From a virus: a DNA stretch of 64,000 bases. This document shows positions 19,472 to 46,327 of this stretch, piece by piece (position 1 is the first letter of the stretch; each line of letters opens with the position of its first letter). The position numbers and the translations under genes were made by a program. Location: positions 10,283-74,282 of IMG/VR virus record IMGVR_UViG_3300044655_000639. One strand, 5' to 3'. Below the pieces are notes generated by a model. It saw nothing but the letters and a program-made list of their open reading frames with translations, was not told the origin of the DNA and did not search any database.

Positions 19472-19488
19472 AATATTCCTTGTTCAGT

Positions 19489-27102: not shown

Positions 27103-27126
27103 TACTACCATCCGAAGATAGTAGTA
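27103..27126 (-). terminator. cUUCGg stem-loop
   Basis: TACTACTATC-TTCG-GATGGTAGTA directly after the 27132 ORF. Confidence 0.5.
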
Positions 27127-27131
27127 AGAAC

Positions 27132-27236: not shown

Positions 27237-27239
27237 GGT

Positions 27240-27660: not shown

Positions 27661-27666
27661 GTATTA

Positions 27667-28386
27667 ATGCCAATATCGCTAGAAGTACTAAGAGATAGTC
27701 TAGGTAAGAAGAAAGGTGCTCTAGTAAGCCAAGAGACTGTAGATGAGCTGAATAGGCTAGAGGAAGATCCTGACTATGGTGATGAGTTCACTGATGCTTA
27801 TAAGCAGTATTTCAATGTACTAGAGAAGAATAGTGCATGGTCTACTCCAAAGTATATGCATGCTTTAAAGTTCTTCTCACTGATGGAGTCTGATCATAGT
27901 GCAGTAGATGCTTATGTTAAGACATTCCCTGAGAGACTAGCTGCTAGACATGCTAGAGGTGAGACCAAAAAGGATATGGGAGGAGAAGCTAGTAGATATA
28001 ATGCTAGTGCTCTAGTCAATGAGATACGAAGAGTAGCAGGAATATCTGTAAAGTTAACTCATAGACATACTATGCTGAAAGCTATACAGGTTACTACTGA
28101 TCTTATGTTGGATAGGAATGTAAGTCCTGCTGTAAGACAGAAAGCTGCAGAGACATTGATCAGAGAACTAAGACCTGAAGAGGATAGTAATGTAGTGATC
28201 AAGGTAGGTATGACTGATGATATGAAGAATCAACAGGCTAAGCTGGTAGATCATATCGGTACCATAGCACTTAACCAGCAGAAGATGCTAGCAGCAGGTA
28301 TGAGGATAGAAGATATACAAAGACTGAATGTATCAGTGATCAGAGATGAAGAATACGAGGAAGCAGAATATGTTGAAGCTGACTAA
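27667..28386 (+). CDS. Terminase small subunit (N4 gp69-like)
   Basis: Y..A.KF...AY.KTFPER...ASRYN...VRQKAA..L pattern; directly upstream of terL. Confidence 0.75.
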   Translation: MPISLEVLRDSLGKKKGALVSQETVDELNRLEEDPDYGDEFTDAYKQYFNVLEKNSAWSTPKYMHALKFFSLMESDHSAVDAYVKTFPERLAARHARGETKKDMGGEASRYNASALVNEIRRVAGISVKLTHRHTMLKAIQVTTDLMLDRNVSPAVRQKAAETLIRELRPEEDSNVVIKVGMTDDMKNQQAKLVDHIGTIALNQQKMLAAGMRIEDIQRLNVSVIRDEEYEEAEYVEAD

Positions 28387-30145
28387 TCAAGCACAAGAGA
28401 GAATCAAAGAAGGTAAACCACTGACTGTAGATGACCTACTGAATAATGTAGACCTAAGATTCAATGGTTATATACCTAGTGCAGTAGCATTTGAATTCTT
28501 TAGCTTTATACGATTATGTTTAGGAGAAGAACCTGAGAATGCTAATCCTCTAGCACACTACTTCCTGATAGATACGATATTCCAGCAGGATAATGTAAAG
28601 TTCTATATGGAGCAAAGAGGTATAGACTATGAGAGTAACAAAGGTAGGACAGCTATCATGTGTACTCGTGAATTCAGTAAGTCTACTCTAATAGGAACGT
28701 ACCTACCACTGTTCATAGCATGGAGGGGGAATATTCCTGGATATGGCGATGTCAACTATGGTCTGTATATAGGGGATAGTATGCGTAATAACGTGAAGAC
28801 TACTATGAATACTATAGAGGTGGTATATCTGGAGAGTCTATGGTTACAGGATCAGTTTGAAGCATACAGGTTCACTGATGAAGTAATGGAGCTAGTACGT
28901 AAGCCTAGGACTAAGAAAGAGATAGCTGAATATGATAAAGCTATACAGATGGGTAAGAAGAAGGAACAAGTACCTGGTAGAAGTAAGCGTAAGTTTGCTA
29001 TGAAAGGCGTAGGGGCAATGACTGGGACAAGGGGAACTAGAAGTGGACTACAAAGACCACAGTTTGCTATATTCGATGACCTGGTTCCAAGTGAGGCAGA
29101 AGCTAATAGTGAAGCAGTACTAGGAAATATACAGTCTACTATTGATAGTGATGTACTACAAGCTCTACATGGTGCTGGTAGCTTTGCTATGATTATTGGT
29201 ACACCATACAATAAGAAAGATCCGGTATATCAGAGGATTGAAAGTGGAGCATGGGTTCCAGTAGTATTCCCAATCTGTAAGGAATTAAGAGTAGATCTAA
29301 CTGAAGAAGAGTTTGAAGGTGTGTGGGAAGATCGTCATAGCTATAAGAAAGTAATGAAGAGATACCTAGATGCTATCAAAGAGGATAAGCAGAGAGGTGT
29401 AATGCAGGAACTAATGCTACGTATCAGTAGTGAAGAGGATAGGTTAATTCCTGACAGCTATATGAACTGGTTCAGTAGAGCTGATATCACTGCAAAAGGT
29501 GGTGAATACAACTGGTACATGACTACAGACTTCACAACTACAGGAAAGAAAGGTAGTGACTTCAGTGGGATAGCAGTATGGGCTGTAAATAGTAATGAAG
29601 ACTGGCTACTGGTGGATCTAAGTCTGAAGAAACTGGATCTGAATGAGCAATATGAAGAGCTATTCAGACTGGTTAATAGGTATAAGAGATTCAATGGTAG
29701 TGTAACTGTAGGAATAGAGACAGATGGACAGCAGAAAGCCCATATATTTGCAGTACAGCAGATGATGGCTAAGAAGAATGAGTACTTTACTCTAGCAAGA
29801 CAGAAAGGTAAGACAGAATTCGGTATAAGTAGTGGTGGAATCAAGAAATTCAACAGGTTTCTAGCAGGTGCAGTACCTAAGTTCCAGAATGGTAAGATAT
29901 GGTTTGCTACTGAAATCAAGAAGACTGCTGATATGCAGGAATTACTACAGGAATTACAGTATACAACCTATGCTGGATTCGGTAGTGGTAGTGATGATGG
30001 TTGTGATCTTATTACTCAAATGAGTATGATGGAAATATACGCTCCAAGTGAAGGGAATGTTAATGAAAAGCATCCTAAAGATCATATGTGGTGGGAAGAA
30101 GAACAAGAAGATGATAATATATACCTAGGATCATACATAGTATGA
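28346..30145 (+). CDS. terL: Terminase large subunit (N4 gp68-like)
   Basis: R.F.KST, G..TG.RG, RP...IFDD, IGTP, and nuclease motifs TTDF..., GIE, DD..D. The likely start is about 28370 (MLKL). Confidence 0.92.
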   Translation: MKNTRKQNMLKLTNQAQERIKEGKPLTVDDLLNNVDLRFNGYIPSAVAFEFFSFIRLCLGEEPENANPLAHYFLIDTIFQQDNVKFYMEQRGIDYESNKGRTAIMCTREFSKSTLIGTYLPLFIAWRGNIPGYGDVNYGLYIGDSMRNNVKTTMNTIEVVYLESLWLQDQFEAYRFTDEVMELVRKPRTKKEIAEYDKAIQMGKKKEQVPGRSKRKFAMKGVGAMTGTRGTRSGLQRPQFAIFDDLVPSEAEANSEAVLGNIQSTIDSDVLQALHGAGSFAMIIGTPYNKKDPVYQRIESGAWVPVVFPICKELRVDLTEEEFEGVWEDRHSYKKVMKRYLDAIKEDKQRGVMQELMLRISSEEDRLIPDSYMNWFSRADITAKGGEYNWYMTTDFTTTGKKGSDFSGIAVWAVNSNEDWLLVDLSLKKLDLNEQYEELFRLVNRYKRFNGSVTVGIETDGQQKAHIFAVQQMMAKKNEYFTLARQKGKTEFGISSGGIKKFNRFLAGAVPKFQNGKIWFATEIKKTADMQELLQELQYTTYAGFGSGSDDGCDLITQMSMMEIYAPSEGNVNEKHPKDHMWWEEEQEDDNIYLGSYIV

Positions 30146-30151
30146 TATAAT
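30143..30151 (+). promoter_or_regulatory. Extended -10 late promoter
   Basis: TGATATAAT upstream of an AAGGAG RBS. Confidence 0.55.
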
Positions 30152-30175
30152 ATCGTAAATATAAAGGAGACTCCT

Positions 30176-30820
30176 ATGACTGTAGCTGATGTTATTGAAT
30201 ATGCAAAGTATGGGGAACTGGCACAGCTGGGTGTAGTAGCACAATTAAAAAGTAATGATCCTATAGAAGTAGTAGATGCAGAGAAACAAGTGTTAAGCTA
30301 TATCAACCTAGGACTGCTAGAACTGCATAAGAGATTCAATCTCAATACAAAAAGACTAGTAGTAACGATGGTCACAGGAACATCAACATATACAATAACA
30401 GCTACTGATTTCAATAAGGTACTAGAAGTATATGATTATACTGGTACTAAGCTTCTACTGAATGAGACTACTGATAGTGATAGTATTACAACTCCTACAT
30501 ATAATACGCTATCAGTACCTAATGCTGCAACAGGTGAAGATATCACGATTGTATATAATGCTTCTCCAACAACACTGGCATGGTCTACTCCTTTATCAGG
30601 TGTAACAGTACCACTTCCCCCAGTAATGTTAGAAGCCTTACTGCACTATATAGGGTATAGAGCACATGGAGCTATAAATGGTAATGTAGATGGTGAAAAC
30701 AATACGCACTATATGAGGTTTGAAGCTAGCTGTAAGAAGATGACAGATATTGGTATTGGTATCAGTATTGACACACCATTAGAGAATGGAACTCTATTAG
30801 AAGCAAAGGGATGGGTATAA
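30176..30820 (+). CDS. Virion adaptor/structural protein (N4 gp67-like)
   Basis: YGEL...INLGL..LHKRF.L...LEALL.YI.YR...FE..C...GWV pattern; synteny. Confidence 0.75.
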   Translation: MTVADVIEYAKYGELAQLGVVAQLKSNDPIEVVDAEKQVLSYINLGLLELHKRFNLNTKRLVVTMVTGTSTYTITATDFNKVLEVYDYTGTKLLLNETTDSDSITTPTYNTLSVPNAATGEDITIVYNASPTTLAWSTPLSGVTVPLPPVMLEALLHYIGYRAHGAINGNVDGENNTHYMRFEASCKKMTDIGIGISIDTPLENGTLLEAKGWV

Positions 30821-30821
30821 C

Positions 30822-33800
30822 ATGGCGAAACAATTACAACTACGCAGAGGGACAACTACTGAACATGCTACATTTACTGGTGCAGAAGCAGAAGTAACAG
30901 TAGATACTACAAAGGATACACTGGTAGTACATGATGGTGTGCTAGCTGGAGGATATCCTCTAGCAAAAGATAGTACAGTAGTGCATCTATCAGGTGCTGA
31001 AACTATTACTGGAGTAAAGACATTCAGTGCTCAACCAGTAGGTATCACAAAAGCTAGTGTAGGGCTAGGTAATGTAGCAAATACAGCACAAGTAACAGCA
31101 GTGACTGGTACAGCTCCTATAGTAAGTTCTGGAGGTACAACTCCTGCTATAAGTATGGCTGCAGCTACTGCGTCTGTTAATGGATATATGACAAGTACAT
31201 ATGCCAGTAAGCTAGATGGTATAGCTACAGGTGCTCAAGTTAATGTAGCTACTGATCTAACTGTAACAGCTGGTACAACATCAGGACCTACTATCAATAG
31301 CTCTACTGGATCGGATGTAGTGATACCGTCAGCAAGCGGTACAAATTCTGGTATAGTAACTACTGGAGCACAGACATTTGCTGGAGCTAAGACACTAACA
31401 TCACCAGTACTAGTGACACCTTCAATAGGAGTAGCCACTGGTACAAGCTTTAATAGTATTACAGCATTAGCAGATACTCTTCCACTAAATAATGGGACTG
31501 CTGCTATAGGTACAAGTACTAAAGTAGCAAGACAAGATCACGTACATGCTCTGCAGTCATATACTACTGGCGTGCAAGACTGGCGTGATACTGCTATGTC
31601 TAAAGCACAGTTCAATGCGCTTGCAGCGGAACGTAGAGCAAATCGGGCTGGAAGTGGGTTTGACAGTTTTGGGGCTAATTATTTTGCTGATAATATTCAA
31701 GGTATAAGAGCGTTATCAACCAATGTAAATTCATTCTTTTTAGGTAGTGATGTTTTAAACTCAGCGGGTAACATAAAAACTGTTATTAATGGGGTACAAC
31801 ATAAAATTTACGATGGAGTATCAAGTTATAAAGACCAAATTGTTTCCCTGCCATCGGCTCCAACAATCTACCAGTTCGGCACAACTCTAACCGCTGAACA
31901 AATCGCATCAGGGTGTATCACTCATGTTGATGCGAGTAATAGTGGATTGATTACGAATGGTAAGTTTGATAATACTGATACGAGTGGGTGGACTCCATAT
32001 CTGGGGGCTTCATTATCTATTGTATCAAATAAATTACGGGTAACTGCAACGACTACTGACGCAAACCCAAGGGCTACAGAAGCAATCCCTACGGTTATAG
32101 GTAAAAAGTACGTTATTGAGGCAGAGCAGTACAAAGGAACAAATGCGTCTACTTATATTGCTGTGTCTAATACTTCTAGTGGTACGTCTCCTTATGCAAT
32201 ACTAAATAGTACAGTAGACGGAAGGGTAACACTTGAGTTTACAGCTACCGCTACAACTTCGTACATTGGAGTATTCACTGTAGGCTCTATCATAGGTAAC
32301 TACTCAGAATTCGACAACATCGCAGTATTCCCATCAGATGCAATCTCACGTTCTGACTTGGTATTCCTTGAGTCATGGCATGAAGATGTATCAGAGAAAG
32401 ACTTTGTGTATCCATTAGGTAATGTCCAGTATCTCGGAACAACTGGAGATAGTGGCACACCCGTAGCTGGAGCATTTGCAGGGTTTGGTACTTATTCACT
32501 ATTTGGCAATTGGCAAGCATCAGGGGCTTTAGTCGGCAAAGGGTATGTATGGAGTACTCTATCCGATGCCAACAAGAAAGCTTTTCTAGCTAATCCTGAG
32601 AATAACTGCTACTTGGATGGGGATAAGGTTATTCAGGTTCGGTATCGTATGAGGGTTGTGCAAGGTTGGGGTGATAGTTGGGAAAATAATTGTGATGTAT
32701 CTGGCATAACACGATTGGCGTATGCGAGTGGTAATGCACGAGTTAAGCCAAAAGGCAAACAAGTATCAATCCTAAATGACCTAAATTCTTTTAGTGGTGA
32801 TAGAACAGCGTGGTATGTATCTTATGACCATACTGATGCTAAAGCTGACATACAAACTCAAATAGGAGCGTTTCAAAGTACGTTAGGGTCTACACTATTA
32901 GATAGCGTTGCGTCTTACGAAGGTAAATGTTACGCAATGCCCATAGCACTTGTCCACCGACGTAATCAAGGTGGGTACCATCCTGTTTATAATAGCAATG
33001 GTACATTGATGGCTAATGATACTACAGTTGATGCTCGTAGATATTGGCATCATAGCAATGCTTTTAAACCCACTTCAATATCAGATTGTTTTTTAACTGG
33101 TGTTGGTAGTAGTCTTATAGGGTTTCATTCACATAGTGGGACTATAGCTTCAACTTATCAAGGAAGACATGATGGCTTATTCTACGACCAAATACACGAA
33201 GGTGACATCATTGACCTTCGCAATTCTTCACAAAAAGTTGAAGATTATAATAGATTACTTAGTCGTGAGTTCAACAAATCGGTTGCAGGTACTACACGTG
33301 GGGCTGAGGGGGAGCGGGGTGTAACATACTCACTGGATACAACTGTAAGTTCTGTTTCATTCTTTGCTGGTACTACAAATGGATTGGGTACATATATAGT
33401 TATACCAACTCCTGTTTCTTTTCTAACTGTTGACACATATCAAGAAATAGTTAATGGGGTGGCAAAATACTTTGCAGTTATTAACGGTATTCCATACTAT
33501 CTTACAAGACGGGATAATGGTACTACACTTTATATCCAAAAAATACTTGGGGAAAAAACAAGTTTTACTGGCTCTATTTCAGCAGGTAATAGCGTACAAA
33601 TCTTGGTTGTAACTAAAACAACCCGCACCAAATCCAATACCATAACCCATACAGACATTATCGGTTCGCCTGCTAATTATCCTACAGCATGGAAGCAATC
33701 AGGCGTAAGCGGAACACCTCTAATCGTGGCTGAGGGTGGAACAAGTCTATTACCAACTGGAACTACTGGCTCAGATGGTTTAGCAGTGTATAAGCTATCA

Positions 33801-34688
33801 CGTAAAGCTAATGCTACACCTTTGCAAGTATTAAAATCTACAAATAGTGGTGCTACTTGGACGCTACTTATTAGTGCTACGCACTACACGTTTTCAACTA
33901 CTGGAAATTACATTGAATTTATCACTGGGCATAGACCCCTTGTAGCAGACTTGATTATGGTGACGTATCAGACTAAGACACAGATGGCATTACCTTCTGT
34001 AAATAGTGAAGTGTTGGCGGTAGGTATGGTGTTAGGGACTAACTCTTTAAGCAGGGCTCATATCACAAGCTCATTAATAGGAAAAATACCAGTATTTAGC
34101 CAAGATTCAAGTCAATACGCTCATCAGGTATCCAATTGGGTTACATCGCCCGTGTTAAGCGCAGCCAATGGGGTGATGCTAGGTGGTGGAAACACGGGAT
34201 ATAACCCGTTACACAATATCGTAACTCTTCCATCTAATACGGCACCTGCCGCTAAAGTATTCCCATACCTAACACGCTCAAATGGTAAAGCCTACTTAAA
34301 CTTAGTATTCAAAGAGATGAAGTTCGGTAGTTTTGTAGCTCCTACTGTGGACACTGGAGCTTCTATCTCACACGTACAATATGCAACTTATCAAGTCAGT
34401 ATTGCAGGGTGTCCGTTAGATGGCGAGATAGTGCAGTGGACAGCTACTACTGCTACGGCTGCTATCAACTGGGCTTTATACAATAAGAACGCAGATGGTT
34501 CACTCTATGTTATCTCTAGCGGTGCTGCTTATACAAACGCTAAGATGTTCGATGGCAACTCATGGGGTGATGATAGTAAGTTTAACATCGTAGATAACGT
34601 AAGCACCACTACAGACGATAACGGTGCTACTGTATTAATAGGGCAAAAACGTATCGAACTACCATACTTTATAGGCGCAGGAGAGTAA
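30822..34688 (+). CDS. Tail fibre/receptor-binding protein with Mtd-like N-terminus
   Basis: LQLRRGTT.EH..FTGA..EVTVDT....LVVHDG...GG.PLA N-terminal domain, Thr/Gly-rich shaft, and a CBM-like NGxF..GW module. Confidence 0.85.
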   Translation: MAKQLQLRRGTTTEHATFTGAEAEVTVDTTKDTLVVHDGVLAGGYPLAKDSTVVHLSGAETITGVKTFSAQPVGITKASVGLGNVANTAQVTAVTGTAPIVSSGGTTPAISMAAATASVNGYMTSTYASKLDGIATGAQVNVATDLTVTAGTTSGPTINSSTGSDVVIPSASGTNSGIVTTGAQTFAGAKTLTSPVLVTPSIGVATGTSFNSITALADTLPLNNGTAAIGTSTKVARQDHVHALQSYTTGVQDWRDTAMSKAQFNALAAERRANRAGSGFDSFGANYFADNIQGIRALSTNVNSFFLGSDVLNSAGNIKTVINGVQHKIYDGVSSYKDQIVSLPSAPTIYQFGTTLTAEQIASGCITHVDASNSGLITNGKFDNTDTSGWTPYLGASLSIVSNKLRVTATTTDANPRATEAIPTVIGKKYVIEAEQYKGTNASTYIAVSNTSSGTSPYAILNSTVDGRVTLEFTATATTSYIGVFTVGSIIGNYSEFDNIAVFPSDAISRSDLVFLESWHEDVSEKDFVYPLGNVQYLGTTGDSGTPVAGAFAGFGTYSLFGNWQASGALVGKGYVWSTLSDANKKAFLANPENNCYLDGDKVIQVRYRMRVVQGWGDSWENNCDVSGITRLAYASGNARVKPKGKQVSILNDLNSFSGDRTAWYVSYDHTDAKADIQTQIGAFQSTLGSTLLDSVASYEGKCYAMPIALVHRRNQGGYHPVYNSNGTLMANDTTVDARRYWHHSNAFKPTSISDCFLTGVGSSLIGFHSHSGTIASTYQGRHDGLFYDQIHEGDIIDLRNSSQKVEDYNRLLSREFNKSVAGTTRGAEGERGVTYSLDTTVSSVSFFAGTTNGLGTYIVIPTPVSFLTVDTYQEIVNGVAKYFAVINGIPYYLTRRDNGTTLYIQKILGEKTSFTGSISAGNSVQILVVTKTTRTKSNTITHTDIIGSPANYPTAWKQSGVSGTPLIVAEGGTSLLPTGTTGSDGLAVYKLSRKANATPLQVLKSTNSGATWTLLISATHYTFSTTGNYIEFITGHRPLVADLIMVTYQTKTQMALPSVNSEVLAVGMVLGTNSLSRAHITSSLIGKIPVFSQDSSQYAHQVSNWVTSPVLSAANGVMLGGGNTGYNPLHNIVTLPSNTAPAAKVFPYLTRSNGKAYLNLVFKEMKFGSFVAPTVDTGASISHVQYATYQVSIAGCPLDGEIVQWTATTATAAINWALYNKNADGSLYVISSGAAYTNAKMFDGNSWGDDSKFNIVDNVSTTTDDNGATVLIGQKRIELPYFIGAGE

Positions 34689-34689
34689 C

Positions 34690-35064
34690 ATGGATTTATT
34701 CAAAACAAACGGGCAACTAAAAGCTAGAGGGAAACTTCTAGCAGACTTGCAAGATGAGCGTACAGCGGCAGAGTATGAAATCTGGAAACAGACTAATGAT
34801 GAAACATTCATGGAAGATGTTATAGTTGGTCAAGATGAAGATGGCAACGACATTATAGAGTCACAGCAAGTCAATGTGTTTGAAGCTCCTATCGTAACTG
34901 AAGAGGAACTAGATGCTTATCTAAAGACACGTTACCGTGAGATGAGACAAGCGGAATATCCTAGTCCAACAGATTATCTCGATGCTATCGTCAAGGGCGA
35001 TACAGTAGCTCAAAAGGCTTATATTGACGCTTGTCTAGCAGTGAAAGTGAAGTATCCGAAATGA
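34690..35064 (+). CDS. Tail fibre assembly/chaperone protein
   Basis: YR..R..EYP...DYLDAIVK......YI..CLAVK.KYPK C-terminal motif directly after the fibre gene. Confidence 0.7.
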   Translation: MDLFKTNGQLKARGKLLADLQDERTAAEYEIWKQTNDETFMEDVIVGQDEDGNDIIESQQVNVFEAPIVTEEELDAYLKTRYREMRQAEYPSPTDYLDAIVKGDTVAQKAYIDACLAVKVKYPK

Positions 35065-35375
35065 AGATGATTATAGCTCTATTAATAACGCTATCTTTGA
35101 GTGCTGAGACGTTCTTTGAGCAAGAGGATAAACAAAAGCACATCATAGGTTCTATGGCTATCGGTGGAGTTGCTACTGGATTGGCAAGACATTACGGTTC
35201 TAATAAGTTTGAGGCTATTGCTATCGGTGTTGCTTCGGCTTTGTTAGTTGGTATCGCTAAAGAGGCTATTGATGGTAAAGGCTATGGCACTGAGGATGTA
35301 GGCGATGTGTATGCAGATACAATTGGAGCAGTTAGTGGTAGTTTATTATCTGCTCAATTCAATTGGAAGTTTTAA
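35061..35375 (+). CDS. YfiM-like exported/membrane protein
   Basis: Signal peptide, then DK.KH...S, G.AKE..D and D..AD..G motifs; start at the ATGA overlap. Confidence 0.7.
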   Translation: MKMIIALLITLSLSAETFFEQEDKQKHIIGSMAIGGVATGLARHYGSNKFEAIAIGVASALLVGIAKEAIDGKGYGTEDVGDVYADTIGAVSGSLLSAQFNWKF

Positions 35376-35438
35376 GTTTATGACGTATTCTAAGTTGCTT
35401 ATGAAGCTGCCTATAGTTCTTAGAAAATTTATTTATGG

Positions 35439-36128
35439 ATGGTTTATGTAATGTTAGATTACCTAAGACGTTTGTGGGCGAGATACAATCCTTTCGACAT
35501 CAAATGGTATATCCACGATATGTCTGAGCCTCTCCACGAATTTAGAAAAGCACTCGAAGAGATACGGCATGGGAATAATGTCACTATCGCATTATTAGAA
35601 AATGAACTAGCGGAAAAAGAGTTTATCCTACAGCAATTTGCCGATGTCATCCCTGACATGGTATGGCTCAAAGAGTATGATGATGAAGGTAGTGGTGGTA
35701 AATATGTGTATGCTAATCGTGCTATACGTGACCAATTACTGTTATGCCCTAACCCAATAGGCTCTACGGATATAGAACTGGCATTGAGAGCTAAGGAAAT
35801 CTATGGTGTTCATAATCACACGTTTGGTGAGAAGTGCAGTAATAGTGATTTGGCTACTATCGAGAACGATAAGCTCGGTCATAAGTCAAGCAGGTTTTTG
35901 GAGTCGGGGCTAGTAAAGGGCAAGATGATGTATCTGGAAGTGCATAAATCTGTTGTACGTACTGACAAGGGAAAAATCATCGGAGTGTGTGGAAGTGGCA
36001 GGATTATCACTGATTATATCGAAGCCGTTAAAGAGCTAGAGACTCTACAACAAGATGACATCAAGTGCTGTCTATCCATCAAGAAGCTAGTTGAAGTGTT
36101 TAAAAAATATGAATTCGAGGAGGAGTAA
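35439..36128 (+). CDS. Stand-alone PAS-domain protein
   Basis: D.IPDMVWLK...GKYVYAN.A...IG.TD.EL...HTFGE.C..SD...YLEVHK..V....G.IIGVCG.GR.ITD; no output domain. Confidence 0.85.
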   Translation: MVYVMLDYLRRLWARYNPFDIKWYIHDMSEPLHEFRKALEEIRHGNNVTIALLENELAEKEFILQQFADVIPDMVWLKEYDDEGSGGKYVYANRAIRDQLLLCPNPIGSTDIELALRAKEIYGVHNHTFGEKCSNSDLATIENDKLGHKSSRFLESGLVKGKMMYLEVHKSVVRTDKGKIIGVCGSGRIITDYIEAVKELETLQQDDIKCCLSIKKLVEVFKKYEFEEE

Positions 36129-36130
36129 GT

Positions 36131-36355
36131 ATGGCTGCTGAAACGTGGGAGGAGGTACGGTATCACGTCCTTGGACAACTTCCCGTCCTCAATAAAAAGA
36201 TTGATAGTCTTGAGACAAAGCTAGGAGTCGTAGAGACTAAGTTCGAGTCAGGGATGGCGGTGATAACCACTAAGATGGGGATGATAACTTTTATATCATC
36301 ATCAGTCGTATCTATCATCGTAGGACTTGCAGTACATTTTTTGGGAGGTAAGTAA
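36131..36355 (+). CDS. Holin/antiholin-like protein (coiled coil plus one C-terminal TM)
   Basis: Topology and position upstream of the endolysin. Confidence 0.5.
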   Translation: MAAETWEEVRYHVLGQLPVLNKKIDSLETKLGVVETKFESGMAVITTKMGMITFISSSVVSIIVGLAVHFLGGK

Positions 36356-36480
36356 TGCACAAAGTAGACAAGCTCTCTAGGGAGTTGGCAAGACTGATAC
36401 AAGAGAAGAAATACAAAGAGGCGAAAGCTATATACGAAGAACTAGGCGAAGTCCTAGAGACTTATCAATGGTGCTGTTAG
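36355..36480 (+). CDS. Small hypothetical protein (41 aa)
   Basis: GGAGG RBS and TAATG overlap; MHKVDKLSRELARLIQEKKYKEAKAIYEELGEVLETYQWCC. Confidence 0.55.
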   Translation: MHKVDKLSRELARLIQEKKYKEAKAIYEELGEVLETYQWCC

Positions 36481-36488
36481 GAGAATAG

Positions 36489-36941
36489 ATGATGCAAGGT
36501 TTTCATCCAAAGTTTACGTGGGAAGAGCTTATACGTACAAATCATAGTAGCTTACAAGCTCAAAATATCAAAGAGGCACTGAAGTATCAAAACGCTGGTA
36601 AGCGGTTATCAAAGCTGTTGGGAAGCATCAGAGAAGCGTATGGATTTCCTATCTCTATTACAAGTGGGTTTCGTTGTCCAGCTCTCAATAGGGCTGTTGG
36701 AAGTAAGGCTAAGACCTCATCACATATGAGGTTTGAAGCTGCTGATTGTATTCCCGTTGGTAAAGATTTCAAGCACTTCTTTAATTGGCTCAATGAACAT
36801 AGTATCGAGTTCCCTGATTTACGCAAAGCAATCATCGAACATCATAAGGGGTTGGTGCATATTGAGGTGAAGATGGATGCTGAGGAGCCTCAAGTATTTT
36901 ACACTACGAATGACAATGTGACGTTTAAGGCGGTGGCATGA
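36489..36941 (+). CDS. Endolysin, peptidase M15 family
   Basis: PI.ITSGFRC..LN.AVG....S.H....AAD...VHI motifs. Confidence 0.9.
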   Translation: MMQGFHPKFTWEELIRTNHSSLQAQNIKEALKYQNAGKRLSKLLGSIREAYGFPISITSGFRCPALNRAVGSKAKTSSHMRFEAADCIPVGKDFKHFFNWLNEHSIEFPDLRKAIIEHHKGLVHIEVKMDAEEPQVFYTTNDNVTFKAVA

Positions 36942-37159
36942 GTAAGTTACTAGAGCTTATTACAGACCCTAATGGGTCACTGTCCCATACGAAGATATGG
37001 AGCAATATTGGGATGGCTACATTGACAGCTACGTTTATCATCGGGACATACAGTCATGGTATCACTCCTGAGCTGATTGTGGCGTATGGTGGAATTGTAG
37101 TGTTCGGGCGTGCAACAAGCAAGTACTTGGATACTAAATCAGTATCTACGGGGGAATAG
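36938..37159 (+). CDS. Holin-like two-TM protein
   Basis: ELITD..G.LS.TK.W motif and two TM segments. Confidence 0.65.
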   Translation: MSKLLELITDPNGSLSHTKIWSNIGMATLTATFIIGTYSHGITPELIVAYGGIVVFGRATSKYLDTKSVSTGE

Positions 37160-37495
37160 ATGGTATGGATTACGTTTTTAAAGATGTACTGGAAATATGT
37201 TTTGGTTTTTGTGTGCTTCTCACTATTTTCTATCTCGCTAGTGGGGATGAGGATATCCAACACTGAGTTAAGAGCTGAGAGGGATATGTACTCTACAGCA
37301 CTAGAGTTCCAGAATGCTTCACTACTAAAGCATAAGAAAGAATATGATGAGAAGTTATCTAAACTGCCTAAAGAGATTGAAAAGATTACTGTTAGGTATA
37401 AAGTTATTTATCAAGGTATAGATGATTGGAAAGGAGATGATAATGCAACTGATTGTGAAAATGCTGATAACTACCTTCGTAGTTTTAACTATTAG
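37160..37495 (+). CDS. i-spanin (Rz-like)
   Basis: N-terminal TM plus coiled coil; overlaps the lipoprotein gene. Confidence 0.7.
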   Translation: MVWITFLKMYWKYVLVFVCFSLFSISLVGMRISNTELRAERDMYSTALEFQNASLLKHKKEYDEKLSKLPKEIEKITVRYKVIYQGIDDWKGDDNATDCENADNYLRSFNY

Positions 37496-37679
37496 TGGAT
37501 GTAGCCATAAGATACTATATGTGCCTAGTGAGTGTAATATCCCAGACTACTCAGAAGTGGTCTTAGATCTAACAGATAGAAATACAACTCTAGGAGAATC
37601 TAAGAGATGTACTATCAACTACACAAAACAAAAAGAAGCTAATGAGAAGATGGTGAAAGCCATAAAGCTTTGTCAATAA
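37443..37679 (+). CDS. o-spanin lipoprotein (Rz1-like)
   Basis: Lipobox ISGC; overlaps the i-spanin 3' end; exact start uncertain (37422-37461). Confidence 0.7.
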   Translation: MQLIVKMLITTFVVLTISGCSHKILYVPSECNIPDYSEVVLDLTDRNTTLGESKRCTINYTKQKEANEKMVKAIKLCQ

Positions 37680-37692
37680 AGTAGATAGAATA

Positions 37693-37721
37693 GTGACAAA
37701 TACCATAGATGATGGTATAAT
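37693..37721 (+). promoter_or_regulatory. Sigma70-type late promoter
   Basis: GTGACA-17 bp-TATAAT with an extended TG. Confidence 0.6.
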
Positions 37722-37751
37722 AACAACAATATCAATCAATAAGGCAGAATA

Positions 37752-37955
37752 ATGACAACAACATCTGGAAAACTCGTAATAATTGACCTAGGTATGTCAA
37801 CAGCACATTACCTATGGAATGGTGCTACACTTGAAGGTGTGGTAAAAGTATTCGTCTATAAAGGAACGTCTTTGACTATCACAGTTAAAGACAAATCAGT
37901 AATCCCAGTAGCAGAGATGAAACTCGCTGGTATCAAAGTAAAGGAAGTAAAATGA
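37752..37955 (+). CDS. Hypothetical protein
   Basis: First ORF after the promoter. Confidence 0.65.
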   Translation: MTTTSGKLVIIDLGMSTAHYLWNGATLEGVVKVFVYKGTSLTITVKDKSVIPVAEMKLAGIKVKEVK

Positions 37956-38173
37956 GTCAATTTGTAATGATAGCACCTGAGGGATATTCTATGCTAGATA
38001 GGCACTATATCAACTCTACAGAACTAAACACAGGGCTTTTTGTCAATGCACACATATACACTGTTATTGAAATCGCAACAGCATTGATGTTGGAGCGTGG
38101 TGATATGACACCTGAGCAAACACTAGCTGATATTCAGTTGGTAAATGATGAGATATGGGTTAAACTGGTATAA
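37952..38173 (+). CDS. Hypothetical protein
   Basis: Coupled ORF. Confidence 0.6.
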   Translation: MSQFVMIAPEGYSMLDRHYINSTELNTGLFVNAHIYTVIEIATALMLERGDMTPEQTLADIQLVNDEIWVKLV

Positions 38174-38177
38174 CTAG

Positions 38178-40781
38178 ATGGCAACTTTTACAGTCACTAC
38201 ATCACAGAATATTGACCAAATAGCTGGTAAGAATGGTGGCGATGTCTACAATATAAATGGAGGTACATTAACTATTGATGGGCACAGCAGGTTTGATTTA
38301 AATGCCTCTAATGCTTCAGCTACAGCTGCTACTTCATTAGGTACTATTACTATATCAGCAACACTTGGTGGAACTCTAAATATCGATGCAAGGAATGTAC
38401 GGCTGATTCCATTCAATAATGGGACTGGAACTGTCCCTGCTGCTGGAACAATCATCTCACAAGGCGGAGCAAGTGGTAAGCTCATGTGTGTGTATGGAGC
38501 TACTCCATCGGTCACTGCTCCACTCGCAACAGGTGCAGCTATGGTTGCATCAAGTTGGCTATTGATAAAACAGTGGAATGGCGTAGAGTTTAGTGCTGGT
38601 GCTTTAACTGGAATTAGTGCAGATGCAACTCAAAATAGTGTTGTAGGATGGATAGAAATATTCGGTGATGATGCCTCAACAATCAATGCTAACCGTTTGG
38701 GTTCAGTCAACATAACGGGTGAATGGTATAGACTTGGAGCTACAACAGGTGTGGCAAACCAAACAATGCAAGTACCTAATAACGGCACACTAAAGCATAT
38801 CGCTGGTGTATGGATTGAGAAGAACGCTGGAGCTAAAGACTATGAGTTTTACCTAAATGCTGGTATGCAAAACACAGTTGGGTCGGAAGAGTTTAGAGGT
38901 AAAGTGTGTTGGATAAGCAACACTGGATTGGTTCGGCTAGGACACAATGGAACAGCTAATATGGGGTATGTGCCTCCAGCAGGGCGTGAAGTTGTAATCC
39001 CAAATGTATTCTTGCAGTGTTGTTTGGCTACTGCTAGAAATGCAGAGGTTGTCCCTAATGCTACGATAGCTACACGATATGACTTCACTACAACTGGTGG
39101 AGGTGTTGTAAATATAGATAAGGCACAGATGGCATGGTATCCCTCTTTTGTTCAGGCGTATTCAGTACAGTTAAGCAATATTCAGGTAATAGAGTCACTA
39201 TACTGTTCAGAGCTTGCTTCTGAAGCCAATTGGATAAACATAGGGGTAGGACAAAAACCTACAACAAGTCTTAATGTATCCCCTTTGATATTAACCCTAT
39301 GTTTTTCAGGGGGTACTATAACAAATTATAAAGGGTCTAGGCTTAACCAAAGTGCGACAGGAATTTATACTGACACTCTGACGGATATCAGTGGGTTTGA
39401 TTTTATCAATCATAGTAATACACCATTGTCAACTAGAGGACACGCAACAACAGGGTCAATAAACGCTACAAGGGTAAACAACTGTAATTTTGTATCTCCT
39501 CAGATATTAGGGGGTAGAATACTTTTGACTTCGTGTACTAACGTCAACTTATCCAATATCGCTTATTCGGATAATGTAAGCGGTACAACATTCACAACAT
39601 ACGCTTCTAGCGTTGTGGATATTGCGTCAGGCTGTATCAATATCACTGTAGATGGTATCACTTTACCTGTTGCTAATAATCAGCCATACACACAGCTTGT
39701 AGGTATTCAAGCTGCTGGGTGTAGCAACATTAAAGTGCGTAACATAGGGACTCTATTATCACCTCTCAATCTCGGTAGCACCAATGCTTGTGGGTATGCT
39801 GTTACGCTAGCAGCAGGTGCAGCAGCAAATAACGTAAAAGTACAGAGAGTCTATGTAAGCAACACACGGACAGGTTTCTCATCGGGGGATAACTCCTCTA
39901 AAGATATTGTGTTTGAGAACTGCTTAGGGGACTATGCTGATACAGCTACAGGGCTAACGTCTTACTCATCACTCAACGCTACCCATAGAGCTATTGGTAA
40001 CAATTTTACCGCTGGTGCTGCTGCTTCCGTGTATGGCACACACTGGTTGGACGTTTTCAGTTCGGCAACCGCAGGAAGAGTTTTAGTGCTAATGAATGAG
40101 CCAAGCTCAACAACAGCAAGCCAAGCGATAGTTGCAAATGGTGCAAACTTCACCTCTGCTGGGGGTTTGTATATGCCTGTCATCGGTCACACTGCTACGT
40201 TTGAAATGCCATACTATGCACTAGGACATACAGGGTTTGCTAATAGTGCTTTGGTAATGTCGGGTGGTACAGCAACGAACTACGACTACAACTTTGCAAT
40301 TGATAAGAATGACGGTGCCGGATGGCCTGCTATGACTACTGCTAACTACACTGCAACGACTCTAGGAACTGCACTCAATGCAATAGGTGCTTTGGATGCG
40401 AGCAAAGGGTTCAAGCTACGATTGAAGATAACTACTATCACAACCAATACCACTGCTATAACCACAGTGTATCTTACGACAACATCAACGACTACAGCGC
40501 AAGGGTATCAATATCCGCTAGATACTATCGTAGCTACAATGACTGGTATGGTGACAGGTAGTGACATAGTGATTCTACCTCATGGTACAGAGACTGTTAG
40601 AGCCACAGCTGAAGACATCTCTGGGACAACATATGCTTATACGTATGAAACTCCTGAGAGTGTGGATATACGTGTATACAAAGAAGGATACTTCCCATTC
40701 AGTATAGAAAACTATATGTTGGGTTCAACAAACGCATCAGTACTAATAACTCAAGTACCTGATGTTTCATATCTAGCTTAA
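38178..40781 (+). CDS. Virion protein with a probable right-handed beta-helix (tailspike-like)
   Basis: Repeating xCxNIxVxNI-type rungs; Asn/Thr/Gly-rich; 867 aa. Confidence 0.6.
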   Translation: MATFTVTTSQNIDQIAGKNGGDVYNINGGTLTIDGHSRFDLNASNASATAATSLGTITISATLGGTLNIDARNVRLIPFNNGTGTVPAAGTIISQGGASGKLMCVYGATPSVTAPLATGAAMVASSWLLIKQWNGVEFSAGALTGISADATQNSVVGWIEIFGDDASTINANRLGSVNITGEWYRLGATTGVANQTMQVPNNGTLKHIAGVWIEKNAGAKDYEFYLNAGMQNTVGSEEFRGKVCWISNTGLVRLGHNGTANMGYVPPAGREVVIPNVFLQCCLATARNAEVVPNATIATRYDFTTTGGGVVNIDKAQMAWYPSFVQAYSVQLSNIQVIESLYCSELASEANWINIGVGQKPTTSLNVSPLILTLCFSGGTITNYKGSRLNQSATGIYTDTLTDISGFDFINHSNTPLSTRGHATTGSINATRVNNCNFVSPQILGGRILLTSCTNVNLSNIAYSDNVSGTTFTTYASSVVDIASGCINITVDGITLPVANNQPYTQLVGIQAAGCSNIKVRNIGTLLSPLNLGSTNACGYAVTLAAGAAANNVKVQRVYVSNTRTGFSSGDNSSKDIVFENCLGDYADTATGLTSYSSLNATHRAIGNNFTAGAAASVYGTHWLDVFSSATAGRVLVLMNEPSSTTASQAIVANGANFTSAGGLYMPVIGHTATFEMPYYALGHTGFANSALVMSGGTATNYDYNFAIDKNDGAGWPAMTTANYTATTLGTALNAIGALDASKGFKLRLKITTITTNTTAITTVYLTTTSTTTAQGYQYPLDTIVATMTGMVTGSDIVILPHGTETVRATAEDISGTTYAYTYETPESVDIRVYKEGYFPFSIENYMLGSTNASVLITQVPDVSYLA

Positions 40782-40790
40782 GGAGATAGC

Positions 40791-42143
40791 ATGGCAATGA
40801 TAACTGATCCAGATAATCTGGTCGTAGGTACAAACCTAACATTCAATACAGGAGCAAGAACATTTGACTTTGTTGTAGCAGGTGGACTGGTAGCAAAGGA
40901 TGGTGTAGATACTAATGCACTATGGAGTAAGCTTGTAGATCTATGGTCTACTGCAACATACAAGCCATTTCCATTCCCTATGAACAAGATTGATAATCGT
41001 TCAGGACAGTATGTGTTTGGTAGAGATCCAGGTGGTAACTACAATGGATGGAAACCAGGAAGTGATGCAACTCGTCAGATGCTACGTAATGGTGGATGGT
41101 CAGAGTACAGTAATGCTGGTGTACTGAATAGGCAGTACTTCGGTGCAGTTCTCCAAGGTGGAGTATCTAGCGGTGCACAGATGTACTTCCAGAAAACAAG
41201 TGGCGGACCAGCTATCAACTATACGTTTACAGACTTGCCTAATGAAGCGGTACAAGTGTTTGGAGATGCAAGTAATGGCAGCTTTGATAATCGTACATAC
41301 TTCAAGTCATTTGTTAGGGAATATGGGTATACCTATGATGATGCTTCTCTAACAGATATTTCTGAGACAGCTACTGGAGCATACAAGCTTCCATTTGGTA
41401 TTAACTCTAGTGCAGACTCTGATATTCAAGCTACCGATGGTGATGTGGCTACACTAGCTCCGTATACTGGTATCACAATCAAGTATGATACTGCTGTTAC
41501 AAACGTAAGTATTGGGGCTGGTAGTTATCCATTCAAGAAGCATATCACTCCTAACGGTGCAACCATCAAGCAGATCTATACAAAGATGCAGTATCAACTA
41601 CGTCAGAATAGTAATATCAATACTGGGGGTACAGGTGGTGTAGTGACTGGTAAGACTGCTGACCTAATCTGCTGGTTCGTAGGACCAACACTATATAGTA
41701 GAGCATTCTTTATACCAAGTCCTGCTGACCTCAATAGTGTAATCTTCATTGATGATAATGGAGTAGAGAGACAATTCCCATATGCATCAGCTGGGACACT
41801 GAACTTCAATGCTCCACTGACTGCAGGTGGTACAGGTGACTATACATTATATTACTCAACTACTCCAGGAGGTAATGACTATGGTGAAAGTACAGCAGTA
41901 GTAGTGAACGATAAAGATGGAGTACCCATCACAGGAACAATCACTGGTGCAAGTATTGCATTTACCTTTGACTATTCTAATAATACTCAAGGTGGATATG
42001 CAGGGGGTACAAATAGGAATGTGGTATTAGCATGGGGTAATCCAGGTTCAGCAAAACCAGGTATCAGTACTGGTACAATTACACAATCTAAAGGTATCAG
42101 TATTTCAGCAGTAGCAGAAAGTGATCCATCATACATTCAGTAA
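40791..42143 (+). CDS. Putative virion structural protein
   Basis: ITDPD.L...DGV...ALWS....W...Y....FPM...GGW.E motifs; beta-rich; late region. Confidence 0.6.
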   Translation: MAMITDPDNLVVGTNLTFNTGARTFDFVVAGGLVAKDGVDTNALWSKLVDLWSTATYKPFPFPMNKIDNRSGQYVFGRDPGGNYNGWKPGSDATRQMLRNGGWSEYSNAGVLNRQYFGAVLQGGVSSGAQMYFQKTSGGPAINYTFTDLPNEAVQVFGDASNGSFDNRTYFKSFVREYGYTYDDASLTDISETATGAYKLPFGINSSADSDIQATDGDVATLAPYTGITIKYDTAVTNVSIGAGSYPFKKHITPNGATIKQIYTKMQYQLRQNSNINTGGTGGVVTGKTADLICWFVGPTLYSRAFFIPSPADLNSVIFIDDNGVERQFPYASAGTLNFNAPLTAGGTGDYTLYYSTTPGGNDYGESTAVVVNDKDGVPITGTITGASIAFTFDYSNNTQGGYAGGTNRNVVLAWGNPGSAKPGISTGTITQSKGISISAVAESDPSYIQ

Positions 42144-42159
42144 ACTTTAAGGTTAAGTA

Positions 42160-43062
42160 GTGCATAATATTGGAAAAAGAGGTAACATGATAGAAAAAAT
42201 AAAATCATTAGCTACTGATTCCAAGTACACTACTTGGTACTGTAGTATTATAAATAATGCTATGGCACGCACAGATGATATTGAAGGAGAGCGGCATCAC
42301 GTGGTTCCACGAAGCATCTGGCCTGATGGCATTTTGCTTAAGGAAAACATAGTAAAGCTTACATATAAGGAGCATTATGTTTGCCATAAACTACTAGCAA
42401 GAATGCTGATAGATCCTGCACATACACGTAAGATGCGCTTTGCTCTATGGAGGCTAACACATAAGCGTGTCAATGATCAGATGTGTAATTCTAGAGATTA
42501 TGAATCTGCCAAAGTGCTTCACAAGCAAGCACTTGAAGAGCTATGGGCGCAGGATGGGTTTAGAGAAGATATGCTAAAAAGTCGTAAATGGTTTTACGAA
42601 AGTGAGGATCAAAAATCTGCTAATAGCAGACGAGCTAAAGAACGACTACAAAACCCAGAGTTTCGTGAAAAGTTTTTTAAAGCTGCCAATGAAGCAAATA
42701 AAATAATCAGAGATTCTGATCCTATAAAATGGGCACAACAATCTATGAGATCTGCAGAAGGAAAAGCTAATGCTAAAAAAACACAGCAAACTGATAGCCA
42801 TCGCAAAGCTTGTAGCGAACGAGAATTAAATAAATCCCCCGAGCAAAGATTAGCGCTGGCCAAGCAAGGCCAACAAGCTCTAGTCGACAAGCTCGGTGGA
42901 GAAGAGGCGTATCGTGAGTACTTGAGCAATAGGATTAAAGGACGTCGCAAGTACATTAATCCTAGCGATGGGTCAATACGCATACTTCGTGAAGCCGTTG
43001 ATGGGTATGTGTTGATGGCTGACTATAAGCTAACTGTAAGGAACCATTATGTTTATATTTGA
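42160..43062 (+). CDS. HNH homing endonuclease (Mob-like)
   Basis: WY..II..A..R...ERHHVVPRS...N.VKLT.KEH...H.LL motif with a basic helical tail; the likely start is about 42188. Confidence 0.85.
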   Translation: MHNIGKRGNMIEKIKSLATDSKYTTWYCSIINNAMARTDDIEGERHHVVPRSIWPDGILLKENIVKLTYKEHYVCHKLLARMLIDPAHTRKMRFALWRLTHKRVNDQMCNSRDYESAKVLHKQALEELWAQDGFREDMLKSRKWFYESEDQKSANSRRAKERLQNPEFREKFFKAANEANKIIRDSDPIKWAQQSMRSAEGKANAKKTQQTDSHRKACSERELNKSPEQRLALAKQGQQALVDKLGGEEAYREYLSNRIKGRRKYINPSDGSIRILREAVDGYVLMADYKLTVRNHYVYI

Positions 43063-43516
43063 CGGAGATGCAAAACGTATCTATATAGAGCCTACTGCAG
43101 TAAGTGGGGGAACAGTCATATTTACCCCACAAGAACTATGGAGTAGATACGTAGACTGGAGATCCCAAGGGGATAACTCTAAGTATCTCCCAGCTATGCG
43201 TACTGTTGATGCTATCATCAGTGGTGGACAACTACTAGGACCATATCTATTCATACGTAATGATCTGGGATGGAGAGGTGTTCCTCCTGTGACTGATGGT
43301 ATCAAGATAATCATCAATGGTTCACTATATGGTGAGTCACAGATACTGCCAGTGATGGAGAACATACCTAACCAAGAGACAGATCTAATTATCAATATGT
43401 CAGCATTGACGAATACTGTTAATACTGGAGGTGGTAGTTCCTTCACACTAGAGCAGATTGCAGATGCTGTAAGGAACAAGATGGTAGGGGATATATATGC
43501 AGCTAAGTTCATCTAA
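43049..43516 (+). CDS. Putative virion structural protein
   Basis: FDG..K.I...LWSR.VDW....N.KYLPA.R...F..N..GWR pattern. Confidence 0.6.
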   Translation: MFIFDGDAKRIYIEPTAVSGGTVIFTPQELWSRYVDWRSQGDNSKYLPAMRTVDAIISGGQLLGPYLFIRNDLGWRGVPPVTDGIKIIINGSLYGESQILPVMENIPNQETDLIINMSALTNTVNTGGGSSFTLEQIADAVRNKMVGDIYAAKFI

Positions 43517-43847
43517 AGGTATCCTGTATGATTTCACTTCTGCAATAGCAGGTACTGGTGGAGGTATAGACAATGCCACTGCTAACATCATAGAAGCCAA
43601 TACAGGTACTAGTATTCATGACTATGTAGGTCATACTGAAATGGAAGAACTGAATGAATTACCATACATAGTAAGAAAGTGGGAAGATGCAACTAAGTCA
43701 AATCTATTGTATACTATCACTATGACATTCATAGATGGACTACTGAGCACTGTGGTAGCACAGAATCATGTGAGTACTCTAACAAAGACAACAACTATAG
43801 TATGGGTGAATGGTAAATTCTTCTCATCTAGTTCAGTAATAGCATAG
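43497..43847 (+). CDS. Hypothetical protein
   Basis: Overlapping ORF in the late operon. Confidence 0.55.
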   Translation: MQLSSSKGILYDFTSAIAGTGGGIDNATANIIEANTGTSIHDYVGHTEMEELNELPYIVRKWEDATKSNLLYTITMTFIDGLLSTVVAQNHVSTLTKTTTIVWVNGKFFSSSSVIA

Positions 43848-43855
43848 GAGCGTAT

Positions 43856-44098
43856 ATGGTATCAACAGAAATAGTACTGGATAGATTTGCAGATTGGCTA
43901 CCACTGACATGCACAGGAACAGTAGTGTATATAGCTGAAGTAGTATCAGGGAACATACTGGTGAAGTTCGGTAGTGGTAGTACTGCTAAAGGCTTCACAA
44001 TGGTTCCAGGTGACACACTGAAAGCAGCAGAGACTGTATATGTTAAAGTAGTAAAAGATGCTGACTCATATCCTACAATACATGTAATCAAAGACTAA
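43856..44098 (+). CDS. Hypothetical small beta-rich protein
   Basis: AGGAG RBS. Confidence 0.6.
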   Translation: MVSTEIVLDRFADWLPLTCTGTVVYIAEVVSGNILVKFGSGSTAKGFTMVPGDTLKAAETVYVKVVKDADSYPTIHVIKD

Positions 44099-44189
44099 GG
44101 AGAACATATGGCTAAATCCTGTAAGACACCTAAACCTAAGAAGTGAGAATACTGTGCACCTCTAAGGGTGTATATCTATACTTATACTA

Positions 44190-44198
44190 TGGTATACT
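44190..44198 (+). promoter_or_regulatory. Extended -10 promoter for portal
   Basis: TGGTATACT following a hairpin at 44153-44174. Confidence 0.5.
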
Positions 44199-44225
44199 TT
44201 CAATAATATAAACTAAGGACTATAC

Positions 44226-46325: not shown

Positions 46326-46327
46326 GT

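Follow-up and report, generated by a model that had tools for sequence, protein, structure and literature searches.

A mobile PAS sensor unit at the head of phage lysis genes: probable coupling of host bursting to an intracellular signal

The stretch of DNA analyzed here (the window) comprises 64 kb of the 74-kb IMG/VR virus record IMGVR_UViG_3300044655_000639, at 39% GC. The uncultured phage is N4-like, judged by its portal protein, which is about 50% identical to the portals of Escherichia phage Pollock and of N4-like Salmonella phages. All genes of the window from 27.6 kb on are located on the plus strand, and this study concerns one of them, which encodes a stand-alone PAS protein of 229 amino acids (aa) and heads the lysis genes. 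It is followed by TM74, a small protein with one transmembrane (TM) segment, a 41-aa peptide (pep41) that ends in two cysteines, a peptidase M15 endolysin, a second small membrane protein (mem73) and a pair of spanins (Table 1). An earlier note on this DNA, made from the sequence alone, had described this set of genes and proposed a signal-gated lysis system; the gene set and its positions were confirmed.

Table 1. Features of the lysis region and its surroundings in the window (residue numbers refer to the PAS protein; ORF, open reading frame; AF2, AlphaFold2).
Feature	Position	Strand	Basis or remark
Tail fibre, 1288 aa	upstream of the small tail-fibre-associated protein	+	
Small tail-fibre-associated protein	34690-35064	+	ORF list
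YfiM-like small envelope protein	35031-35375	+	114 aa from TTG; the ATG near 35061 is the more probable start
Mobile block (most of the YfiM-like gene, PAS, TM74, pep41)	35094-36480	+	right edge is the pep41 stop codon
Stand-alone PAS protein, 229 aa	35439-36128	+	ORF, AF2, Foldseek, homologues
PAS core, residues 72-190 (PDMVW...GxGR..T.Y)	35652-36008	+	AF2 strands, Foldseek, invariant columns
Invariant NHTFGEKCSNSD motif, N126-D137, E-alpha/F-alpha region	35814-35849	+	conservation in 119 phage-type sequences
Phage-specific C-terminal PAS tail	36009-36125	+	Cys pair C210-C211 at 36066-36071; VFKKYEF and acidic end near-universal
Shine-Dalgarno sequence of TM74, GAGGAGGAG	36117-36125	+	final three Glu codons of the PAS gene, direct reading
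TM74	36131-36355	+	coiled-coil N-terminus, one C-terminal TM segment; candidate holin or holin regulator
pep41, 41 aa, ends ...QWCC	36355-36480	+	ORF; alignment of 9 loci; AF2
Peptidase M15 endolysin	36489-36941	+	PF08291 E 2e-16; phrog_894 endolysin E 7e-22
mem73, two-TM small membrane protein	36938-37159	+	phrog_1322 E 9e-18; second holin candidate
i-spanin, N-terminal TM and coiled coil	37160-37495	+	ORF, topology; homologue in L002
o-spanin lipoprotein, lipobox LTISGC	37422-37679	+	gene overlaps i-spanin end; homologue in L005

The open reading frame of the PAS protein encodes an N-terminal coil, a single PAS domain and a tail bearing the cysteine pair, as the earlier note had read it. An alternative start at 35451 would yield 225 aa, and homologues start near 'LDYLRRLW'. 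Against the Pfam family PAS_4 the protein scores 17.1 bits, below the threshold of 23.1. A set of 5.8 billion proteins contains 166 homologues of 200-260 aa (E <= 0.01), the majority of which carry PF08448 or PF00989, and the close relative P0121 reaches 32.8 bits against PAS_4; an exhaustive HMMER scan returned 991 proteins at E <= 1e-3. The AF2 model, built on a 28-sequence alignment (mean predicted local distance difference test score, pLDDT, 83.8), displays a PAS core at residues 74-189 and helices at residues 2-16, 21-70, 191-201 and 212-223. Within this core, strands at 74-80, 86-92, 151-159, 162-174 and 180-189 form the five-stranded antiparallel sheet of a PAS fold, with the helical segment (C-alpha to F-alpha) in between. 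The top Foldseek matches of the model are PAS and short-LOV structures (probability 1.0). Because the homologues carry PAS families and the modelled core and its structural matches agree, the PAS assignment is secure despite the score below the Pfam threshold. No kinase, GGDEF or DNA-binding domain was detected in the protein with Pfam and NCBIfam, in line with the earlier note, and the C-terminal tail offers 39 aa only.

The first helix carries a W.(K/R)YNPFD motif and is followed by the long helix of residues 21-70. In 119 phage-type sequences, PDMxW, YxYAN, P106, G108, D111, NHTFGExCxNSD, ExG, LEVxK, GxGRxxTxY and F221 are conserved at 90-100%, with H127 at 98%, C133 at 99% and the tail residue F221 at 97%. 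H127, T128, F129, G130, C133, S136 and D137 remain conserved at 98-100% across deep divergence, and the NHTFGEKCSNSD motif to which they belong is a candidate ligand, cofactor or redox site. Further cysteines are more variable: C184 is found in 82% of the sequences, and two tail cysteines in 88 of 113. A metal or Fe-S site formed by four cysteines (C133 99%, C184 82%, C206 82%, C210 89%) was considered; the set is not universal when loci are inspected one by one, and such a site is kept as a candidate only. A PDB sequence search with the family profile returned no meaningful relative, and a latrotoxin stretch resembling HTFGE.C..SD was discarded as insignificant (11.7 bits). Two unusual proteins may be mentioned. 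P0122 (4799 aa) matches PAS residues 160-206 in 28 separate stretches and appears to be a repeat protein derived from the last PAS strands, and in P0164 (294 aa) a tail-fibre-like C-terminus follows on a phage-type PAS sequence that stops after its N-terminal half, at the D-alpha helix, the protein being either a recombinant or an assembly chimera.

The PAS gene ends in GAG GAG GAG TAA (36117-36128), and these final codons provide the Shine-Dalgarno sequence 5 nt upstream of the TM74 start codon, as the earlier note had observed. The stop codon of TM74 in turn overlaps the start of pep41 (TAATG). Because the ribosome binding site lies within the final PAS codons and the next two genes overlap, the PAS, TM74 and pep41 genes are translationally coupled.

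TM74 (74 aa) begins with a polar coiled-coil region (about 45 aa) and ends in its only TM segment, at about residues 48-70. Since the family lacks a signal peptide, TM74 should be a tail-anchored protein that exposes most of its mass to the cytoplasm. Located two genes 5′ of the M15 endolysin, it has what is looked for in a holin, namely a small membrane protein encoded near an endolysin. A profile search found 33 unnamed metagenomic proteins and nothing else. Some of its relatives in other loci (here TM7x) match phrog_1193 ('hemolysin', XhlA-like) and phrog_689 (holin) weakly (E 0.003-0.03), and an XhlA cluster is among the language-model neighbours of TM74; we regard these signals as leads only, and none of 23 TM7x members matches the XhlA family PF10779 at E <= 0.1. 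XhlA-type proteins are encoded beside a holin and are needed for efficient lysis. Those of PBSX (XhlA) and SPP1 (gp24.1) resemble TM7x in being small, in combining a coiled coil with a single C-terminal TM segment and in residing in lysis cassettes, but their phages infect Gram-positive hosts, and no PAS partner accompanies them.

Peptides of the pep41 type (41-44 aa) share an invariant C-terminal cysteine and an LxTY motif (...vLxTYxxxC in the alignment of 9 loci). The AF2 model of pep41 is a helical hairpin (helices 2-16 and 20-40, pLDDT 89.7). A [VI][FL]x[KT]Y pattern recurs at the C-terminus of the PAS protein (...VFKKYEFEEE) and at that of pep41 (...VLETYQWCC); that both ends compete for one docking site is pure speculation. 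Searches (tblastn, megablast) of 50,697 cultured-phage records with the PAS protein, TM74 and the whole cassette returned no match.

In order to place these genes in context, related loci were searched for in viral, genome and metagenome collections, and ORFs were called on the loci found (labels L002 etc.). Of 24 distinct loci, about 23 have, immediately 3′ of the PAS gene, a gene for a coiled-coil protein with a C-terminal TM segment, at a spacing of -17 to +20 nt; these TM7x proteins (70-98 aa, about 23 loci) present a polar and helical region of 40-65 aa and then the TM segment. A pep41-type gene lies 3′ of TM7x in 9 of the about 23 loci. At least 17 loci encode an endolysin no more than three genes away, and at least five families are represented: peptidase M15_3 in the window, L003, L005 and L014; M15_4 in L009, L011, L012 and L102; glycoside hydrolase GH108 in L006, L007, L013 and L095; a GH24 lysozyme in L090; and a DUF5675 protein in the endolysin slot of L002 and L004. 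Spanins or extra multi-TM proteins often adjoin the pair. In L005, L011, L012, L014 and L096, TM7x is the sole small membrane protein beside the endolysin, and in L102, L005 and L014 the PAS-TM7x pair resides between a holin candidate or spanins and the endolysin, that is, inside the cassette and not at its edge. PAS-only homologues are found consistently in lysis cassettes, a point that the earlier note had proposed as a check. The DUF5675 protein (141 aa; L002:7083-7508, L004:3391-3816) follows directly on PAS-TM7x(-pep41), matches PF18925 (E 8e-32 and 5e-35) and belongs to phrog_1501, a cluster of unknown function; judged by this position it may represent an unrecognized endolysin family.

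Comparison with L002 indicates that these genes are mobile. The block that reaches from within the YfiM-like gene to the pep41 stop codon is 92% identical in nucleotide sequence between the two records, and it is the only match within positions 27000-46900 of the window (19.9 kb). Outside the block the tail fibre, the endolysin slot (DUF5675 protein and a 593-aa protein) and the remainder of L002 are unrelated to the window. Metatranscriptome contigs from one lake sample diverge from the window at 35100 and at 36480, and past 36480 they continue as L002 7043-7072 with 1 mismatch in 30, so that both arrangements occur in a single sample. A block of such identity between unlike flanks, set before a different gene in the endolysin slot, shows that three or four genes move as a cassette which can be placed before different endolysins.

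The PAS domain appears to have been acquired from bacterial signalling proteins. Over residues 55-205, identity to the PAS domain at the N-terminus of GGDEF, GGDEF-EAL and histidine-kinase proteins amounts to 40-50%, and in a set with one representative genome per species the close cellular relatives are nearly all Campylobacterota (Sulfurimonas, Sulfurovum, Sulfuricurvum and metagenome-assembled genomes of Campylobacterales). The (W)HTFGExCxxSD motif is common to the phage proteins and to these sensors. The earlier note had taken it for an insert, which is refuted by this distribution: kept in phage proteins and in cellular sensors alike, HTFGExCxxSD characterizes, as judged from the alignments, a subfamily of PAS domains. 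A maximum-likelihood phylogeny of 127 PAS cores places the 30 stand-alone proteins together in one clade (SH-like approximate likelihood ratio test, SH-aLRT, 100), nested in a clade (SH-aLRT 98) that otherwise holds sensor PAS domains of Campylobacterota. Stand-alone and cellular proteins were told apart by their match to the profile, which is full (N-terminal coil and tail included) in the former and limited to the core in the cellular multidomain proteins. The PAS domains of the Campylobacterota GGDEF, EAL and kinase proteins share the signature PDMxW...(W)HTFGExCxxSD...GxGRD(I/V)T with the phage proteins, but they feed enzymatic outputs and lack the W.KYNPFD helix, the long coil, the CxxxC...FKKYEF tail and C184. 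The simplest reading would be one capture of a Campylobacterota-type sensor domain by phages, with helix, coil and tail added afterwards. The phage is present in many lake-water metagenomes; this occurrence and the GC content are compatible with a host among the Campylobacterota, which we infer to be the host group.

Several known systems invite comparison. In T4 lysis inhibition, small phage proteins encoded near the lysis genes, namely the antiholins RI (periplasmic) and RIII (cytoplasmic), make the timing of holin T, a single-TM holin that they bind, responsive to a signal, as we propose here, and RIII acts on the cytoplasmic part of the holin, as would the PAS protein, for which the contact with TM74 is a prediction. 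Neither sequence nor fold relates the two systems. The cue in T4 is superinfection, sensed from outside, whereas the presumed sensor of the module is a cytoplasmic PAS protein and TM74 has a large cytoplasmic domain with almost nothing in the periplasm. VqmA_Phage of vibriophage VP882 (PDB 7dwm; Foldseek rank 15, E 5e-6) is a quorum-sensing phage PAS receptor which derives from a host sensor and couples a chemical cue to the killing of the host. It combines PAS with a helix-turn-helix (HTH) domain and acts by transcription on a lysis-lysogeny switch; a VqmA-type receptor was rejected for the window, since Pfam and NCBIfam display no C-terminal HTH in the PAS protein, which is instead tied to a membrane protein in the lysis cassette of a lytic N4-like phage.

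The best structural matches, short LOV and stand-alone PAS proteins (PpSB1-LOV, Mrub_1259 LOV), likewise consist of a PAS core with flanking helices and no effector, and they signal via these helices and dimerization. A LOV photosensor was dismissed: the flavin consensus (GXNCRFLQ type) is absent, the motif reading NHTFGEKCSNSD (HTFGEKCSNSD), and identity amounts to 15-19%. An analogue in a cultured phage is gp089 of Cellulophaga phage phi14:2, annotated 'PAS domain-containing protein' (KC821624 70355-70984), the gene of which overlaps a glycoside-hydrolase endolysin gene. Its single polypeptide starts with a TM anchor, followed by a coiled coil and a PAS_4-type domain, elements which are split over two genes in the window, and its PAS domain is a remote homologue of the window family (hhalign 93.6%, E 2e-7). 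Neither the HTFGExCxxSD motif nor the Cys tail is present in this protein, and phi14:2 is a crAss-like phage that infects Bacteroidota; the union of these elements in one chain lends indirect support to a complex of PAS, coil and membrane segment. In the literature we found no paper linking PAS domains to holins, antiholins, endolysins or lysis cassettes, and none on the Cellulophaga PAS protein.

Based on this dataset, we consider it likely that the module takes part in lysis. A mobile sensor unit at the head of the lysis genes further suggests a probable coupling of host bursting to an intracellular signal. Whether the PAS protein, TM74 and usually pep41 constitute a self-contained lysis-regulation module, in which the sensor acts on a holin- or antiholin-like partner, is a question on which we find the balance about even. 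Of the signal-gated lysis proposed in the earlier note, the role in lysis and a functional pair of PAS and membrane protein are supported by synteny and block transfer; binding of the two proteins, sensing and an effect on timing are what we infer from this. The PAS protein would reside in the cytoplasm and probably dimerize via its long N-terminal helix, and its phage-specific flanking helices would probably dock on the cytoplasmic coiled coil of TM74. TM74 could itself serve as the holin, or it could modulate a second holin in the manner of an antiholin; mem73 is the candidate for this second holin in the window. A signal at the PAS pocket (the H127/C133 motif, often together with C184 and the CxxxC tail), probably of redox, metal or small-ligand nature, would alter the contact between PAS and TM74 and thereby advance or delay hole formation and hence release of the endolysin. 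As the sensor seems to be captured from a Campylobacterota-type signalling protein, its pocket probably reads the same cue as the cyclic di-GMP (c-di-GMP) and kinase sensors of the host. A bolder version, tentative and to our mind somewhat doubtful, would have a cytoplasmic PAS receptor drawn from the redox or ligand sensors of the host directly gate a tail-anchored holin with the aid of pep41, so that bursting follows the metabolic or oxygen state of the host. The three genes would then be a portable cassette for any endolysin and would belong, together with fused TM-coil-PAS proteins of other phages, to a widespread family in which a sensor gates lysis.

A number of observations weigh against such a sensor-gated module. 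TM74 matches no family in Pfam or PHROG, holin families included, and no natural PAS-TM7x fusion occurs among the best 150 matches at any length. Two members of the stand-alone clade, the paralogue in L005 and the protein of L110, have no TM partner. C184 and the Cys tail are common without being universal, and per locus they do not correlate with the presence of pep41. The PAS domain of ArcB (residues 149-278) aligns to the phage family as a distant relative (80% probability), but hhalign pairs ArcB C180 with A92 and C241 with Y165 and not with the cysteines of the family; disulphide sensing of the ArcB type was rejected because the positions differ. The contigs covering the cassette derive from RNA libraries, and presence there is not proof of transcription. 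Finally, the portals of L005, L006, L007, L008, L009, L014 and L102 are N4-like (30-47% identical to that of the window), so that synteny may be partly inherited and the loci are not fully independent; a blanket claim of unrelated phage backbones was dropped for this reason. No portal match was obtained in the records L002, L003, L012 and L013, most of which are incomplete; the L013 record (40 kb) is 93% complete and has no N4-like portal. That the pair persists while gene order and endolysin family change, that it occurs in L013 and that the block is transferred argue, despite this kinship, for selection on the PAS-TM7x pairing.

The obligatory pairing and translational coupling with TM74 would equally suit a PAS protein that senses nothing and serves as an adaptor or chaperone, keeping TM74 soluble or inactive or aiding its insertion, in which case stoichiometry would time lysis. 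No recognized cofactor motif was found in the PAS protein and its tail cysteines vary, both of which speak for such a role and against sensing. The pocket residues, in turn, are 98-100% conserved and shared with bona fide cellular sensors, which is hard to square with a mere scaffold, and we regard this explanation as unlikely, although it is the strongest of the alternatives.

Two further explanations place the function of the PAS protein outside lysis timing. PAS domains commonly dimerize, and the 40-50% identity to Campylobacterota sensor domains, adjacent in the tree, would allow the phage protein to act as a decoy that heterodimerizes with GGDEF, EAL or kinase sensors of the host, an alternative raised in the earlier note. 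Late in infection such a decoy would disturb c-di-GMP or two-component signalling, and its gene would stand beside the lysis genes by chance. This would leave unexplained the invariant tail-anchored partner, the conserved phage-specific terminal helices and the joint transfer with TM74 and pep41 in a block that ends at the pep41 stop codon; moreover, takeover genes are usually early, whereas the PAS gene shares its strand and neighbourhood with late genes for structure and lysis. We consider it the least probable of the explanations discussed. Only slightly more probable appears a membrane function such as superinfection exclusion, defence or counter-defence, or a response to envelope stress, encoded by a module that travels with lysis genes. 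Accessory genes are known to accumulate in lysis regions, the transferred block takes a YfiM-like envelope protein with it, and the PAS gene of L110 adjoins kinase-like proteins. Yet the pair is embedded within cassettes in L102, L005 and L014, TM7x is the only holin candidate in several loci, and the gene of the cultured-phage analogue gp089 overlaps its endolysin gene.

Lysis timing sets burst size and fitness of a phage. Its known regulation comprises holin-intrinsic clocks, antiholin isoforms and the sensing of superinfection (T-even phages, ICP1, for which lysis inhibition has reportedly been described); to our knowledge, no studied phage ties lysis to an intracellular signal. If the sensor-gated module holds true, a cytoplasmic sensor of small molecules or redox state wired to the hole-forming machinery would constitute a new input layer for lysis, and lytic phages of redox-cline bacteria (Sulfurimonas and Sulfuricurvum of lakes, the presumed hosts) would match bursting to the physiology of the host. 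Comparative genomics supports reading the module as a new, portable form of lysis regulation in phages, built around a PAS sensor that was captured from a host, and the module would document a single such capture. Being compact (about 1.1 kb, three genes), portable between endolysin types and provided with obvious residues to mutate (H127, C133 and the two cysteines of the tail), it is directly testable in a cloned cassette, and it could become a ligand-gated lysis switch for synthetic biology.

The two exceptional clade members are as follows. L005:595-1242 is a second, divergent PAS paralogue after the i-spanin/o-spanin pair of this locus, devoid of tail cysteines and followed by a 64-aa coiled-coil ORF without a TM segment. 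In L110 (2540-5181) the PAS gene is flanked by a membrane HATPase_c protein (5′) and a TM/HisKA-like protein (3′), with a ClpP-like protease nearby. In P0121 (552 aa) a phage-type PAS domain with Cys tail is fused to a TM histidine-kinase-like ATPase; judged by their gene architecture, L110 and P0121 represent a variant which wires the same sensor to kinase-like partners.

Among the neighbouring genes of the window, the YfiM-like product matches the NCBIfam YfiM lipoprotein model partially and under the cut-off (E 4e-7), phrog_26616 ('lipoprotein') at E 7e-9 and its counterpart in L002 at 2.3e-56. Small envelope proteins with a DKxxH...KE..D motif recur just 5′ of the PAS gene, in the window as well as in L006 (5596-5850) and L105 (956-1201). 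The M15 endolysin passes the Pfam model Peptidase_M15_3 with 60.5 bits (cut-off 23.2). The second holin candidate, mem73, has a relative in Pseudomonas phage Bise, directly 3′ of an endolysin-like gene and between the Mor gene and the terminase genes. The spanins, with overlapping i-spanin and o-spanin genes and a lipobox, constitute a two-component pair.

A scan of the region for sigma-70 promoters and terminators gave counts not above those of shuffled sequence. In contigs of the RNA-library runs X7 and X8, 160 nt past the o-spanin gene (37690-37851) are replaced by 30 other letters, and the nucleotides lost in this way include the region's best sigma-70-like site (37693-37721, 11 of 12 matches). 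Apart from the lysis region, ARAGORN lists a tRNA-like gene with an undetermined two-letter anticodon ('ag') at 19487-19563 on the minus strand, adjacent to a tRNA-Met at 18897-18972.

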